Shown: piece by piece, positions 26,782-41,305 of the stretch
Layout of the letters: each line of letters opens with the position of its first letter
How positions within the stretch are numbered: the first letter of the stretch is position 1
Virus record (IMG/VR): IMGVR_UViG_3300045541_000260
Span: 5,929-69,928 of that record
DNA from: a virus
DNA: 64,000 bases
Strand: one strand, 5' to 3'
Position numbers and translations under genes: made by a program
The notes under the pieces: model-generated
The model's input: the letters and a program-made list of their open reading frames with translations, nothing else
Told to the model about the DNA's origin: nothing
The model's database searches: none

Positions 26782-26857
26782 GCTCGGTTCGTCTATCGGT
26801 TTAGGACGCTAGCCTTTCACGCTGGAAAGACGGGTTCGATTCCCGTACCGAGTACCA
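26782..26857 (+). tRNA. tRNA-Glu(UUC)
   Basis: cloverleaf, CCA. Confidence 0.95.
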
Positions 26858-26867
26858 AATAAATGAA

Positions 26868-27365
26868 ATGAGATTTGTAAAAAAAATTCCAAACTTTTTT
26901 AGCATTGATGAATGCCAGACAGCAATCTCATGTCATGATGATTCATATTATCAAGATCATGGTAATCTTATCGGCGGTTCTCTATCAAGTTTTAACTTTT
27001 TTAAAGATAAGGATCGCAATGAGTTTCATGAACTGTTAGATGAGAAATTAAATTTTAGCAATAGGATACTTGAACTTATCAAGTTCCCGGGAGCTATTTC
27101 GCATGTTTGGCTTAACATACAGCCTAAAAATTCTGTTTTAACCCCGCATATCCATTCACACAACAATTGTATAATGTCGGGTAGTTTGTATTTAAAAGTT
27201 GATAGCAGTAGTAGTGCAATTAAATTTTCTCATGTCGAGAAATACATTGTTAAACCAGAATTAGGAATGCTGTTGGTATTTCCAAGTTGGTTAGTACATG
27301 GGGGTTATGGAGACAATTTATCAGATGAAAGAATAGTATTAAGTTTTAATGTTGTAAAAAATTGA
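26868..27365 (+). CDS. 2OG-Fe(II) oxygenase (TIGR02466-like)
   Basis: W.N, H.H, SGSLYL, FPSWLVH, RIVLSFN. Confidence 0.8.
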   Translation: MRFVKKIPNFFSIDECQTAISCHDDSYYQDHGNLIGGSLSSFNFFKDKDRNEFHELLDEKLNFSNRILELIKFPGAISHVWLNIQPKNSVLTPHIHSHNNCIMSGSLYLKVDSSSSAIKFSHVEKYIVKPELGMLLVFPSWLVHGGYGDNLSDERIVLSFNVVKN

Positions 27366-27449
27366 TACCATATTGAAGCACATTATCAAAGTGGGTTCGA
27401 TTCCCCGCCATTGATCCGGTTGCTGGTGCTAGTGTGTTTCAATATGGTA
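27366..27449 (+). ncRNA. long-stem ncRNA with T-arm-like hairpin
   Basis: TACCATATTGAAGCACATTA/TAGTGTGTTTCAATATGGTA; internal GTGGGTTCGATTCCCCGC. Confidence 0.7.
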
Positions 27450-27494
27450 AGAGAGTAATTAACTTTTACTGTAGTCGGAAGTCATGACTCCGAT

Positions 27495-27630
27495 GACCCG
27501 TGGTAGTTTAATGGCAAAATGAGAGAGACACAGGTTCGAGCCCTGTCTGGATCCCTAACTAAGGAACCGGTAGCATAGTTGGACAATGCGCGGACAGATG
27601 GCAGTTTCGAAACCTGCCCCACAATGGGTC
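27495..27630 (+). ncRNA. tandem anticodon-less tRNA-elbow mimic
   Basis: two D-arm + T-arm units enclosed by GACCCG/TGGGTC. Confidence 0.6.
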
Positions 27631-27732
27631 GCTATATTGAAGCACATTAGATCGACTAAGGAAGGTCAGGGAGAAGTGAAATTCTCGTAGGGAGTAGGAG
27701 TCGAGTCCTACAATAGTGTGTTTCAATATGGT
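27631..27732 (+). ncRNA. long-stem ncRNA, GAAGCACATT/AGTGTGTTTC family
   Basis: GCTATATTGAAGCACATTA/TAGTGTGTTTCAATATGGT; internal GTAGGA/TCCTAC and GAGAA/TTCTC hairpins. Confidence 0.7.
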
Positions 27733-27735
27733 TAA

Positions 27736-27955
27736 ACCATAAGAATGACAATTTGATGTCAGCAAGAGAAAGTCACTGTTGTAAGTAGCTGGCCAGCCAA
27801 AGCGACAGTAAAGCAGTGAGGGGCGCAATACCCTAGCAAAAATAGAAGCACTGGACAAGTATCTCAAGTGACTTACCGACTCCCGTCCGGACTAGTGCAA
27901 TCGGGTGAATGGTGCCAATAAGGTGGTGGCACATTCAAGTTGTCATCCTTATGGT
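27736..27955 (+). ncRNA. 220-nt structured ncRNA closed by 21-bp helix
   Basis: ACCATAAGAATGACAATTTGA/TCAAGTTGTCATCCTTATGGT; internal AAGTCAC/GTGACTT. Confidence 0.65.
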
Positions 27956-27963
27956 AAAGTTTT

Positions 27964-28048
27964 GGAGAACGAGAAGCATTGGTGACTTCAGGAGACTGTA
28001 AATCTTCCGCCTCCGGCATACGGGGTTCGAATCCCTGGTTCTCCACCA
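27964..28048 (+). tRNA. tRNA-Tyr(GUA)
   Basis: cloverleaf, variable arm, CCA. Confidence 0.92.
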
Positions 28049-28054
28049 AGTTTA

Positions 28055-28129: not shown

Positions 28130-28133
28130 ATTT

Positions 28134-28169
28134 GGAAGCGTAACTCAGTTGGTTAGAGTATCGGACTTT
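28134..28169 (+). pseudogene. 5' half of a tRNA (probably Lys-UUU) truncated at the anticodon
   Basis: GGAAGCG-TA-ACTC AGTTGGTTA GAGT-A-TCGGA-CTTT then AT-rich sequence; no complementary 3' half seen. Confidence 0.75.
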
Positions 28170-28201
28170 ATTTGATAAATAAGTATAAAGGAGTTACAAT
28201 T

Positions 28202-28831
28202 ATGCTTACTTGTCAATTTTGTAATAAAGAGTGTAAAAATAAAAATAGTCATATAAATCACGAGAGAACTTGCCCTTCTAATATAAACAGAGTTTATAAA
28301 AATGGAATGTTAGGTAAAAAAGGATCTAACCATTGGCTCAAAGCAAGGAGTGAAGGAACAGAATATGTTTTATCAGAAGAAACTAGACAAAAAATGTCTG
28401 TCGCAAGTTCTAGTAGGACACATTCTGATAAAACAAAAAAAATATTGTCAGAGATAAGAAAGAAATTTTTAGAGGAAAATCCAGATAAGATTCCGTATCT
28501 ATTAAATCATTCTTCAAAAATTTCTTATCCTGAGCAATATTTTTTAGAGTGTTTTTCGAACATAACCAAAAATAAAGAATTTCAATATCCAATACACAGA
28601 TTTTTAGTTGACTTTGCTAATCCTAAAGAAAAAGTATATCTTGAAATTGACGGCGAACAACATTATGTTGATAAAAGAATTGTTGCTCACGATACAATAC
28701 GCAGTAAAAAATTAACTGAATTGGGCTGGACGGGAATTAGAATTCGTTGGGCTCATTTTCAAAAATTAACAGATGATGAAAAAAAGCAAAAGATAAATGA
28801 AATACGGTCCATGATGAAATGGTTATCATAG
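28202..28831 (+). mobile_element. free-standing homing-type endonuclease (Zn finger + NUMOD3-like + Vsr/DUF559-like nuclease)
   Basis: CQFC..H...C; LSEETRQKMS, HSDKTKKILS; VDF..LEIDGEQHY..D..R...L..LGW..IRI.W; SD AAGGAG. Confidence 0.8.
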
Positions 28832-28879
28832 TTGACTTTTAATCAATCTTTCCCGGTTCGAGTCCGGGTGGACCGACCA
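28805..28879 (+). tRNA. tRNA-Lys(UUU) overlapping the endonuclease 3' end
   Basis: CGGTCCA/TGGACCG acceptor, GTTGA-CTTTTAA-TCAAT, CCCGG-TTCGAGT-CCGGG, ACCA. Confidence 0.9.
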
Positions 28880-38885: not shown

Positions 38886-40094
38886 ATGGAAAAAAAGAAA
38901 ATTGCAGTTGTTGGCCGTGGCACTGCCGGTGTTATGGCTATGGCAGACGTAGTTAATAGATTCGGCACTAGTGCTGAATTAGAATGGCATTTTGACAGCA
39001 ACATAAAACCTCAGGCAGTAGGAGAAGGCAGCACATTGTTGGTGGCCAAATCATTATTTAAAAATCTAGGTTTTTCGCATCATGATCTAGATCACATCGA
39101 CGGAACTTTTAAACACGGTATTAGAAAAATGAATTGGTCGCCGGATAATCTGGACTTTTTCCATGAATTTCCTGCCCCAAACGTTTCGTATCATTTTAAT
39201 GCTGTTGCATTACAAAATTATGTTTATGGTTTATTAAAAGATAAAGTAAAAGTTTTTGATCATAATATCACTTATGATCAAATTGATGCTAGTTATGTCA
39301 TTGATTGTTCTGGAAAGCCCAATGACTGGAGCTTGTTTGATGAACCTCAATATATACCAGTTAATGCTGCTTATGTAACACAGTGCTATTGGGATCTGCC
39401 AAGATTTTTTCATACACTGACTATTGCACGGCCATACGGCTGGGTGTTTGGCATCCCACTTAAAAATCGATGCAGTATTGGCTATATGTTCAACGATAAT
39501 ATTACATCAGTAGAGGAAGTAAAAGAAGATGTCAAACATGTGTTTGAACAATTTAATCTAACACCCAGCACTACAACTAATGAACTGCATTTTAAGAATT
39601 ATGCTCGAAAAACTAATTTTCTTAAGGGTGTAGCATTTAACGGCAATGCCAGTTTCTTTTTAGAACCCATAGAAGCATCGACTTTAACTGGAGTAGAGTA
39701 TATTAATGATTGGGCCTGTTCATTGATAAAAAATCCAATAGAAATTCATAAATTCAATGGTATGTATAAAAAGAGAAATGAGAACATCGAAAGAATGATT
39801 ATGTTACATTATTTTGCTGGATCAATTTTTAAAACTGATTTCTGGGATTTTGCTTACGAACGAGCACGCCGATGTTTAGAAATTGCAGTTAATGACGATC
39901 CGAATTGGCAATTAATCTATGAAGTTAGTAAAACATCTGATCCAAAGGATCCAGCAAAATACATGCCACTGTTAATGGAAAAAAAATGGCCAGGCCTATT
40001 ATTCGAAGATTGGACAGATTGGAGTTATCATGAAAATCTTTCTCATCGAGGCATGAATCTTTACGATAAGATTGACGCTTTAAAAAGAAAATAA
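38886..40094 (+). CDS. flavin-dependent tryptophan halogenase-like protein
   Basis: VVG.GTAG, VGEGS, IDCSG, GWVFGIPL, FLEPIEA. Confidence 0.8.
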   Translation: MEKKKIAVVGRGTAGVMAMADVVNRFGTSAELEWHFDSNIKPQAVGEGSTLLVAKSLFKNLGFSHHDLDHIDGTFKHGIRKMNWSPDNLDFFHEFPAPNVSYHFNAVALQNYVYGLLKDKVKVFDHNITYDQIDASYVIDCSGKPNDWSLFDEPQYIPVNAAYVTQCYWDLPRFFHTLTIARPYGWVFGIPLKNRCSIGYMFNDNITSVEEVKEDVKHVFEQFNLTPSTTTNELHFKNYARKTNFLKGVAFNGNASFFLEPIEASTLTGVEYINDWACSLIKNPIEIHKFNGMYKKRNENIERMIMLHYFAGSIFKTDFWDFAYERARRCLEIAVNDDPNWQLIYEVSKTSDPKDPAKYMPLLMEKKWPGLLFEDWTDWSYHENLSHRGMNLYDKIDALKRK

Positions 40095-40815
40095 TCATGA
40101 ATTCCAAGAAAGTTGTTGTATTGGGCAAGGGCACTGCTGGTGTTCTTACTATGGCCAATTTTCTTAAAGAAAAAGAAGCTAATCCTAATTTAGAGCTCGA
40201 ATGGCATTTTGACTCTGACATCAAACCTCAGGCTGTTGGCGAGGGCAGTCCTTTAAACATTCCCAAAGAACTATTTCGGACAGTGGGTCTTTTTACGCAT
40301 GACTTAGCTAATGTAGACGGAACATTCAAACATGGCATTAGAAAAATTAATTGGCAAGGCCAAGCAGACTTTTTCCATGAATTTCCGCCAGGCGAAGTAG
40401 GCTATCATTTTAATGCAACTGCACTGCAAAAATATATCTTTGATAAAATTAAAGACCAAGTCAAAATTGTTGACGCCAACGCAACCTCCGATAAAATTGA
40501 TGCTAGTTATGTAATAGACTGCTCAGGAACCCCTAAGGATTCTGAATCAATTGATCTGGTCAAATACATACCAGTCAATGCTGCTTATGTAACACAGTGC
40601 TATTGGGATATGCCAAGATTCGCTTATACATTAGCTATAGCTAGACCCTATGGTTGGGTGTTTGGCATTCCATTGGTAAATCGATGCAGTATTGGCTATA
40701 TGTTCAATGATACTATTTCCTCTATAGAGGAAGTAAAAGAAGATGTCAAACATGTGTTTGAACAATTTAATCTAACACCCAGCACTACAACTAATGAACT
40801 GCATTTTAAGAATTA
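39511..40815 (+). repeat. 91-bp exact direct repeat (39511-39601 and 40725-40815) in the halogenase paralogs
   Basis: TAGAGGAAGTAAAAGAAGATGTC...GCATTTTAAGAATTA identical in both genes. Confidence 0.9.
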
Positions 40816-41305
40816 CATAAGAAAAGAAAATTATACTTCTCGTGTAGCTTATAATGGAAATGCCAGCTTCTTTTTAGAACCAATGGAAGCCACAAGTCTA
40901 TCAACAATGTTATTTGTTAATACCCAGGCCAAGTCGTGTGTTCTAAATCCACTTACTGTTCGTAGATCTAATATGCTTTACAAAGATAGATTAACAAGAA
41001 CAGAAAGAATGATTATGTTGCATTATTTTGCGGGATCTGTCTTTAAGACAGATTTTTGGGAATTTGCGGAAGAACGCGGCAGAAAATGCATCGAGGACGC
41101 AGTAAAAGATGAAAACTGGTTGAAATGGTATAATGCCAGCAAAAAAATCATTTATAACGGAGATTCTTCTCGTGTAAATGAAGAAATGATGAGATCTGGA
41201 TATATTATTGGTGGTGGCGATGAATGGAGCCCATGGAATTTGCATATCAACATCTCGCACATGGGACTGAACATCTACGATCGAGTAGATGCTATGATTA
41301 AATAA
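40097..41305 (+). CDS. flavin-dependent tryptophan halogenase-like protein (tandem paralog)
   Basis: same motifs; both paralogs are 402 aa. Confidence 0.8.
   Translation: MNSKKVVVLGKGTAGVLTMANFLKEKEANPNLELEWHFDSDIKPQAVGEGSPLNIPKELFRTVGLFTHDLANVDGTFKHGIRKINWQGQADFFHEFPPGEVGYHFNATALQKYIFDKIKDQVKIVDANATSDKIDASYVIDCSGTPKDSESIDLVKYIPVNAAYVTQCYWDMPRFAYTLAIARPYGWVFGIPLVNRCSIGYMFNDTISSIEEVKEDVKHVFEQFNLTPSTTTNELHFKNYIRKENYTSRVAYNGNASFFLEPMEATSLSTMLFVNTQAKSCVLNPLTVRRSNMLYKDRLTRTERMIMLHYFAGSVFKTDFWEFAEERGRKCIEDAVKDENWLKWYNASKKIIYNGDSSRVNEEMMRSGYIIGGGDEWSPWNLHINISHMGLNIYDRVDAMIK

Follow-up and report, generated by a model that had tools for sequence, protein, structure and literature searches.

Mimicry of tRNA by non-coding RNAs is well known, with tmRNA, YrlA and the tRNA-like ends of viral RNAs as examples. 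GOLLD and ROOL, phage non-coding RNAs of several hundred nucleotides (nt) that form multimers, are found next to tRNA genes, and the tRNA arrays of phages are mainly viewed as a codon supply or as a replacement of tRNAs destroyed by host defenses. Here we analyze an element at positions 27495-27630 (+ strand) of a 64-kb window, by which we mean the whole stretch of DNA analyzed, 64,000 nt of the linear IMG/VR virus record IMGVR_UViG_3300045541_000260 (69.9 kb, estimated completeness 21%). This element is very probably the gene of a stable, structured, tRNA-like non-coding RNA, and it belongs to a family from the tRNA arrays of uncultured freshwater phages. A preliminary description of the element, made from the letters of the window, had named two D-arms, two T-arms, a central hairpin and an outer stem, and every one of these parts is present where that description placed it. 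Full-text literature searching, mostly of abstract-level text, turned up neither a double tRNA-like RNA of this kind nor the spacer hairpins around it, and within that literature the family is previously undescribed. What would be new is a single RNA with two complete elbow modules, swapped with each other, conserved across phages and placed within a tRNA array. The parts of the element are as follows, with pairing given over the alignment described below.

27495-27503, +: 5′ strand of the acceptor-like outer stem; forms 5 + 4 base pairs (bp) with 27619-27630; 9 pairs, 100% paired
27504-27505, +: invariant TA after the outer-stem 5′ strand, like U8-A9 of tRNA
27506-27520, +: D-arm 1; 4-bp stem, 7-nt loop with GG
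27521-27529, +: linker 1; purine-rich, with a consensus motif in the alignment that is common to linker 2
27530-27546, +: T-arm 1; 5-bp stem, canonical 7-nt T-loop; 100% paired, three pairs changed on both sides
27547-27570, +: central hairpin; 4 bp, A/A mismatch, 3 bp and 8-nt loop; contiguous with T-arm 1
27571-27572, +: TA after the central hairpin; invariant in the alignment
27573-27589, +: D-arm 2; 4-bp stem, 9-nt loop with GG; 100% paired, two pairs changed on both sides
27590-27599, +: linker 2; purine-rich in the alignment
27600-27618, +: T-arm 2; 5-bp stem, 9-nt loop consisting of a T-loop-like heptamer between a U and a pyrimidine
27619-27630, +: outer stem, 3′ strand; 3-nt AAT bulge at 27623-27625
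27631-27634, +: G + CTA, where the discriminator and CCA of a tRNA would stand; the CTA also opens the following hairpin cassette

The outer stem, previously given as GACCCG and TGGGTC, is present but longer than had been claimed, as it continues across the AAT bulge. The absence of an anticodon stem-loop from both units, also noted earlier, holds for the window copy and for the consensus structure computed with RNAalifold. The lack of a CCA end, in contrast, is true of the window copy, which ends in G-CTA, but not of the family: the 13 known copies encode G-CCA in 4 cases, G-CTA in 7 (window included) and other letters in 2.

Comparison with Described RNAs

The element resembles tRNA genes and dimeric tRNA precursors in its genomic slot, its strand and its flanks, and it shares with tRNA the D-arms, the T-arms, a stem of acceptor type, the TA of positions 8-9 and a tail of G + C(C/T)A. 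Two of each arm are present and all four covary, with GG in both D-loops, a canonical T-loop 1 and a T-loop 2 of 9 nt. However, neither half of the element has an anticodon arm, and the outer stem, with 9 bp interrupted by a bulge, differs from the 7-bp acceptor stem of tRNA. The element cannot resolve into two cloverleaves, since the 5′ acceptor-like strand belongs to the first half and its 3′ partner to the second. ARAGORN called no tRNA at 27495-27630, as the preliminary description had anticipated, and no tmRNA, and no Rfam family matched the element at gathering scores. At a relaxed threshold the Rfam tRNA model (RF00005) reached 22.7 bits against a cut-off of 29 and covered D-arm 1 and T-arm 1, aligning model positions 7-64 with 17 anticodon-arm positions replaced by 4 nt. 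Given the missing anticodon arm and the score below the Rfam cut-off, the element is not a tRNA.

The closest likeness in the order of parts is to YrlA (RF02553), which is known in phages and bacteria and which, as described (PMC4201824), has an anticodon-less tRNA-like domain with a T-arm, a closed acceptor-like hairpin and a D-arm in that order. The arms of YrlA likewise carry tRNA-like conserved loop letters, and the helices that stand in this order in the element are confirmed by covariation. In the element, however, this module is enclosed by a further D/T pair and by the acceptor-like outer stem, which take the place of the Ro-binding stem. A comparison with the YrlA and tmRNA models, suggested at the outset, gave a partial match to the former, 19 bits against a cut-off of 69, with model positions 28-81 lying on 27527-27589 (T-arm 1, hairpin and D-arm 2). 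This match is not special, since tandem tRNAs in the same record reach 31.4 bits with the YrlA model, and the YrlA authors themselves warn that dimeric tRNAs give false positives (PMC4201824). The same source gives the Rsr-binding motif of YrlA as GNCGAAN0-1G near the 5′ end (PMC4201824); this motif is absent from 27445-27634, where the sole CGAA belongs to T-loop 2 and follows a TT. With a score below the cut-off, no Rsr motif and no Ro gene found in six fragment records, the element is not a member of YrlA.

The tmRNAs, including the two-piece forms, resemble the element in having a tRNA top, made of an acceptor stem, a T-arm and a reduced D region, with other RNA in place of the anticodon arm. 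The element differs in having neither a tag reading frame nor pseudoknots, as well as in the lack of an ARAGORN tmRNA call, and the only Rfam tmRNA match nearby is a 13-nt T-loop hit at 27393-27405, outside the element, with 10.9 bits against 47. It is therefore not a tmRNA. GOLLD and ROOL are unrelated to the element in sequence, and neither gave an Rfam match in 26850-27970 at E values up to 10.

Conservation and Covariation

We collected 13 distinct sequences of the double form, namely the window copy and those on contigs L112, L136, L176, L180, L205, L228, L233, L236, L244, L251, L262 and L281; a fourteenth, on L171, is cut by the contig end. The copies come from viral and metagenome contigs, and all 13 lie inside phage tRNA arrays between spacer hairpins. 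Their mean column identity in a MAFFT alignment is 78%. In this plain alignment the structure derived from the window pairs 90.3% of cells, against 78.8% in shuffled alignments, and 14 pairs have changed on both sides; none of 500 shuffles reaches the observed values. When the partners are slid by 1-3 columns, pairing falls to 27-56%. D-arm 1 is one column off in the plain alignment. An alignment fitted with a covariance model pairs 98.3% of cells, with each of the seven helices at 90-100%, although such an alignment leans towards its model.

An independent test left out the window copy and its closest relative, L180. RNAalifold applied to the remaining 11 relatives recovered the same seven helices, comprising 33 pairs, 16 of them with compensatory changes. 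A covariance model built from these 11 relatives (R2) found the window copy at 27495-27630 with 116.2 bits (E 2.3e-30, model positions 1-134), while the next-best match in the window, a run of tandem tRNAs, scored 19.1 bits. Each of four records with a double copy, searched whole, contained exactly one strong match. Furthermore, G-U pairs are tolerated only on the + strand, that of the element, which argues for conservation as RNA rather than as DNA.

All five pairs of T-arm 2 are kept in every copy and four of them have changes on both sides; in the L112 copy, letters one and five of its loop heptamer are swapped together. The central hairpin covaries at all four of its outer pairs, and a stem of 7-9 positions folds in 13/13 copies. 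D-arm 1 appears in the RNAalifold structure as columns 12-15 paired with 24-27, one pair being UA in five sequences, GC in five and AU in one. For the outer stem a single compensatory pair is seen, in L112, and its 4-bp part also covaries in L132, a member of the sister form described below. Alignment of the homologs bears out the expected conservation of the D- and T-loops, with GG in both D-loops and a canonical T-loop 1 across the 13 copies. The preliminary description had also argued that the arrangement is not the product of random decay of two tRNAs; indeed, all 13 copies keep the double architecture with compensatory changes, and none has two intact tRNAs at the locus. Two decayed tRNAs can be rejected on the further ground that the acceptor strands within each half are not complementary and that relatives retain the double form. 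The linkers are unable to form an anticodon arm, for which reason a permuted or split tRNA gene was rejected as well.

A variant of the leader and element is present on contigs from two RNA libraries of two studies (X15 and X16), compared over 27300-28050. It equals the window at 27428-27527 and 27596-27628, and between these parts it has 17-18 substitutions and seven small indels. The changes include compensatory ones in T-arm 1 (27531/27545 and 27532/27544) and in D-arm 2 (27575/27587), and both mismatched A's of the hairpin (27551 and 27566) are gone. We regard these contigs as a weak hint of expression.

Two Probable tRNA Tops

The connectivity of the helices suggests a different grouping from the one first described, in which D-arm 1 with T-arm 1 and D-arm 2 with T-arm 2 had been taken as the two units. 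In the alignment, T-arm 2 joins the 3′ strand of the outer stem without a gap and T-arm 1 joins the central hairpin without a gap. An invariant TA followed by a D-arm stands after the 5′ strand of the outer stem (D-arm 1) and again after the 3′ strand of the hairpin (D-arm 2). These junctions match those of tRNA, so that two tRNA tops are the natural reading. Judging by the positions of the TA and by the T-arm junctions, the units are most likely the outer stem with D-arm 1 and T-arm 2 on one side and T-arm 1 with the hairpin and D-arm 2 on the other; the earlier units would be chains, and the structural units the tops. By analogy with tRNA connectivity, the outer stem of top I would stack on T-arm 2, and D-arm 1 would dock onto them; in top II the central hairpin would stack on T-arm 1 and D-arm 2 would dock likewise, this top being circularly permuted, in the YrlA order. 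The two tops would be joined where the anticodon stems would sit, with the purine-rich linkers presumably crossing between them. Seen as chains, the RNA would be a domain-swapped pair of anticodon-less mini-tRNAs (D1-linker-T1 and D2-linker-T2) with swapped acceptor strands.

The central hairpin would then be the equivalent of the acceptor stem in the inner unit; its stem of 7-9 positions together with T-stem 1 gives 12-13 bp, the length of the acceptor/T minihelix of tRNA. Sequence mosaics support the tops as units: between the window and L180 the frame is identical at 74/76 positions and the inner unit at 33/60, and between L205 and L244 the corresponding values are 77/78 and 29/58. The joint swap of heptamer letters in L112 speaks for a real T-loop fold in arm 2, and the D- and T-loops may dock as they do in tRNA. 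The alignment contains no conserved Watson-Crick pairing between linkers 1 and 2. A Watson-Crick helix between the linkers is possible in some relatives and impossible in the window or L180, and was rejected. The letters at a possible 15-48 tertiary pair were also considered for matching D-arms to T-arms and showed no clear covariation.

Leader Hairpins

The conserved region extends in the 5′ direction beyond the boundaries first drawn and includes two further hairpins.

27447-27469, +: leader hairpin H1; stem of up to 7 bp, 9-nt loop at 27454-27462 with a 6-nt palindrome
27474-27494, +: leader hairpin H2; 6-bp stem, 9-nt loop at 27480-27488 with a 6-nt palindrome

The first 2 nt of H1 overlap the end of the preceding hairpin cassette, and H2 abuts the first G of the outer stem, position -1 being U in 21 of 23 family members. 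Across these 23 aligned members, H1 has 89.5% of cells paired and five pairs changed on both sides, H2 97.4% and three, and the two together 93.1% and eight, values that 0/500 shuffles reach. The loop palindrome is present in 21/23 copies of H1 and 23/23 of H2, against a background of 5.9% among the 9-mers of the window. In both L251 and L147 the H1 palindrome is replaced by another through a paired double change, and H2 of L147 bears an H1-type palindrome.

The Sister Form and Other Small tRNA-Like RNAs

A sister form of the element ("type 2") is represented by nine distinct sequences (L159, L161, L172, L229, L184, L200, L231, L132 and L147), of which three serve as examples.

L159, 9942-10036: sister form
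L161, 10962-11056: sister form
L172, 1345-1439: sister form

The two leader hairpins, the bulged 9-bp outer stem and the place in the array are all common to both forms, the bulge of the sister form being 2-4 nt long and A-rich. Its interior comprises a D-like arm and a 5-bp hairpin whose loop has 4-7 nt, together with a long extra arm and a canonical T-arm. The result is a class-II tRNA-like shape with a non-standard anticodon loop. ARAGORN, applied to six sister loci, returned tRNA-??? with a 2-nt anticodon for three, tRNA-Tyr for one, tRNA-Asp for one and no call for one. A 239-kb record (G002) has the sister form and lacks the double form, and a third, shorter form is found in L113 and L135. 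What stays constant in the family is thus the leader with the outer stem, along with the D-like arm that comes first and the T-arm that comes last; the filling at the anticodon position varies, and in most copies the loop there is too short or irregular for codon reading.

Searches with two degenerate loop patterns found no homologue of the element and returned YrlA-like modules, single mini-tRNAs and tandem tRNAs. Many viral contigs (L036-L108; e.g., L038:4961-5019 and L103:6059-6124) carry a T-arm, a closed acceptor-like hairpin and a D-arm in the YrlA order; of four scanned with Rfam (L038, L036, L050 and L103), none reaches the YrlA gathering score. Single mini-tRNAs with an acceptor stem, a D-arm, a short linker and a T-arm and without an anticodon arm adjoin normal tRNAs in two viral contigs (L020:3741-3799 and L025:3324-3385), and these pass the Rfam tRNA gathering score with 48-50 bits.

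Spacer Hairpins and the tRNA Slot

The element lies between two hairpin cassettes.

27367-27448, +: hairpin cassette A (context); conserved stem of ~19 nt, variable interior with a T-arm-like hairpin
27632-27732, +: hairpin cassette C (context); stem sequences as in A, interior different

The 18-nt repeat that flanks the element is perfectly conserved in other contigs, and a search with it led to 62 viral contigs (L109-L170) with 66 copies of a spacer-hairpin family, each with a conserved stem of ~19 nt and a variable interior of 27-92 nt. The interiors fall into 47 distinct sequences, and 59 of the 62 contigs carry tRNAs. Half of the copies (33/66) start exactly at the CCA of a tRNA called by ARAGORN. 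A partner arm follows within 200 nt in 60/66 copies, and in 27 of these 60 a tRNA then follows within 60 nt. Variant stems covary with the following arm (L113, L180 and a second stem family in L134/L140). Pairing of the flanking repeats around the element, as in the minimum-energy fold, was rejected, since the variant copies covary with the following copy and not with the preceding one. Therefore, 27367-27448 and 27632-27732 are separate units and the element sits in the usual place of a tRNA. It stands on the tRNA strand, flanked by spacer hairpins like those of real tRNAs, and the window copy has H1 and H2 directly upstream and a spacer cassette directly downstream.

The covarying alternative stem sequences point to a hairpin that is formed at the RNA level. 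The spacer hairpins organize phage tRNA arrays and the family is widespread; roles in processing, in recombination or as small RNAs could be envisaged. A further segment of 220 nt in the window (27736-27955) is closed by a long stem whose ends resemble those of the spacer hairpins (z -3.17, 0/200 shuffles), and probably represents a larger member of this type of cassette. In addition, a 625-nt RNA-library contig of run X16 contains the 5′ repeat arm three times at a spacing of ~240 nt, which indicates that cassette arrays occur in RNA libraries, although such libraries may carry DNA.

Possible Functions

We tentatively favor a role as a tRNA-body mimic, decoy or scaffold: an RNA that would be matured like a tRNA and would bind or titrate tRNA-binding proteins that do not depend on the anticodon. 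The preliminary description had likewise proposed that the RNA could titrate elbow-recognizing proteins. The element would be transcribed together with the tRNAs and trimmed by tRNA-processing enzymes, with RNase P cutting between the U at -1 and the first G and the 3′ end being set at G + CCA, whether encoded or added. The mature RNA would then display two elbow-plus-minihelix surfaces for recognition by proteins that depend on the tRNA body instead of the anticodon, and it might bind, titrate or scaffold, for example, host tRNA-targeting defense nucleases or tRNA-processing and modification enzymes. Such a mimic could neither decode nor be cut in an anticodon loop. We favor this role given a tRNA body in a tRNA slot with tRNA-like ends and no usable anticodon, and the sister form, with its non-standard anticodon loop, fits a role for which the tRNA body is required and decoding is not. 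With a conserved member that does not decode, the arrays would gain a third kind of product beside the two mentioned above, and one that offers a handle on host proteins that read the tRNA body.

Several observations weigh against a tRNA-body mimic. The minimum-energy fold of the single sequence is another structure, and with a z score of -0.10 the element folds no better than its shuffles, 86 of 200 folding equally well. The 9-nt T-loop 2, the weak D-stem 1 and the fold of the linkers mean that two intact elbows are a matter of inference. No protein partner was found, and among the protein genes within 6 kb of the element none is recurrent (3/23 loci at most). The TROVE domain was found in 0/6 records, all of them fragments estimated to be 5-69% complete, and the family of CCA-adding enzymes (PolyA_pol) in 0/5 records, all incomplete. 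All of the hint of expression comes from RNA-library contigs, and the libraries may contain DNA. Moreover, the conserved leader hairpins with their palindromic loops are not explained by simple mimicry. A more specific version of the mimic, in which the domain-swapped double tRNA body is a phage anti-defense sponge for host nucleases or sensors of tRNA bodies, perhaps in leader-linked assemblies and with inner-unit and class-II variants tuned to host factors, strikes us as unlikely.

Other roles have to be weighed against the tRNA-body mimic. The element could act in cis on processing or folding, recruiting RNase P or other enzymes or insulating the tRNAs, with no role once released. A position between spacer hairpins like those of real tRNAs, the presence of one copy per array-bearing record and the absence of a linked partner gene would all be expected of such an element, but the arrays need none, most slots of the same arrays hold ordinary tRNAs and one relative lacks the whole block 27364-27735; the strictly kept two D/T sets, linkers and leader loops also exceed what a cleavage signal needs, and we consider this role unlikely. 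Alternatively, once matured to G-CCA, the outer stem could be charged by a synthetase that ignores the anticodon, and the RNA would then serve a non-ribosomal transferase as a non-decoding amino-acid carrier or disturb translation factors. The long extra arm of class-II tRNA is read by seryl-tRNA synthetase without use of the anticodon, and the sister form resembles a class-II tRNA with such an arm. The discriminator-like G followed by CCA in 4/13 copies, the C-T-A in seven more, which CCA addition could repair, and the U at -1 with G at +1 point in the same direction. Against this, a 9-bp outer stem with a 3-nt bulge is unlike any standard acceptor stem, the CCA is not conserved, and no gene for a synthetase, a transferase or a CCA-adding enzyme was found (PolyA_pol as above, in incomplete records), so that a carrier appears improbable.

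We hold an adaptor of the YrlA type to be just as doubtful as the carrier; in such an RNA, which would link a Ro-like or other ring protein with an exoribonuclease, the inner module would be the effector-binding domain. The order of parts in this module is that of YrlA (PMC4201824), and YrlA-like modules are common in other phage contigs, yet the YrlA score is low (19 bits against 69, with up to 31.4 for tandem tRNAs of the same record), 27445-27634 lacks the Rsr motif, TROVE was not found in the six incomplete records, and a second D/T pair closes the module where YrlA has a Ro-binding stem. A self-assembling RNA, in which the palindromic leader loops of different copies pair to give dimers or larger assemblies that display tRNA-like heads, would be compatible with the mimic and would account for the frequency of the 6-nt palindromes in H1 and H2 (21/23 and 23/23 against 5.9%), for their palindrome-to-palindrome double change in H1 of L251 and L147 and for the H1-type palindrome in H2 of L147. 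However, RNase P cleavage at the start of the outer stem would remove the leader, and the palindromes could be protein sites at the DNA level; we think self-assembly improbable. A last alternative is that two tRNA genes were rearranged and left a remnant without function, or that the element works at the DNA level, for example in recombination or as a binding site; tRNA fragments do occur in the array (e.g., the 5′ fragment at 28131-28170) and the single-sequence fold is not significant. Nevertheless, 13 distinct copies keep all helices by compensatory changes with their loops fixed, the G-U pairs are strand-specific and both complete D/T sets are kept in all copies. In view of the covariation and of the score of the left-out model, the remnant explanation is close to refuted and the least probable of all.

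The family lends itself to direct tests by structure probing, binding assays and phage genetics, since it is small, well defined by covariation and supplied with natural variants: copies with the inner unit exchanged, the interior of the sister form and the paired changes in the loops.

Genomic Setting and Searches for Relatives

The element lies within a 600-nt stretch free of open reading frames, between an oxygenase gene (26868-27365) on one side and a tRNA-Tyr (27964-28048) on the other. ARAGORN finds 27 tRNA genes in the window, all on the + strand and spanning 23.7-49.3 kb. Auxiliary genes among them encode 2OG-Fe(II) oxygenases, a DUF559 endonuclease-like protein, a fucosyltransferase and methyltransferases, together with two tryptophan-halogenase-like proteins and a sugar epimerase. 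DNA nearly identical to the window is present in freshwater metagenome runs. In a DNA contig of run X5, position 27363 is joined to 27736 via four other letters, which indicates a close relative without 27364-27735, that is, without both hairpin cassettes and the tRNA-like RNA as one block. A second joint in run X5 (27511 to 27617) has a shorter side of only 26 letters and was not used.

Among isolated phages, blastn with window positions 26850-27970 gave no match, and an exact 22-mer of the element was absent from the viral contigs searched. The upstream 165-amino-acid (aa) 2OG-Fe(II) oxygenase has no relatives in the viral or metagenome contigs searched; tblastn with this neighboring oxygenase returned only cyanophage and pelagiphage homologues, which have 25-38% identity and do not share the context. 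A pattern built on the conserved leader matched 15 viral stretches, 9 of them family members, and at least 119 metagenome stretches, with 12 family members among the matches listed. The same pattern, run against one genome each of 185,579 bacterial and archaeal species, gave 87 chance matches and no member.

Two further features of the array are recorded here. The 5′ tRNA fragment at 28131-28170, which comprises an acceptor strand, a D-arm and the start of an anticodon arm, stands directly before a gene for a 219-aa DUF559/endonuclease-like protein (28172-28831), and the end of this gene overlaps an intact tRNA-Lys (28805-28879). Together, the fragment and the gene resemble a scar left when a nuclease gene was inserted into the array. 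Finally, the two adjacent tryptophan-halogenase-like genes (38886-40094 and 40097-41305), each encoding 402 aa, form a tandem duplication whose repeat segments are 71-84% identical.

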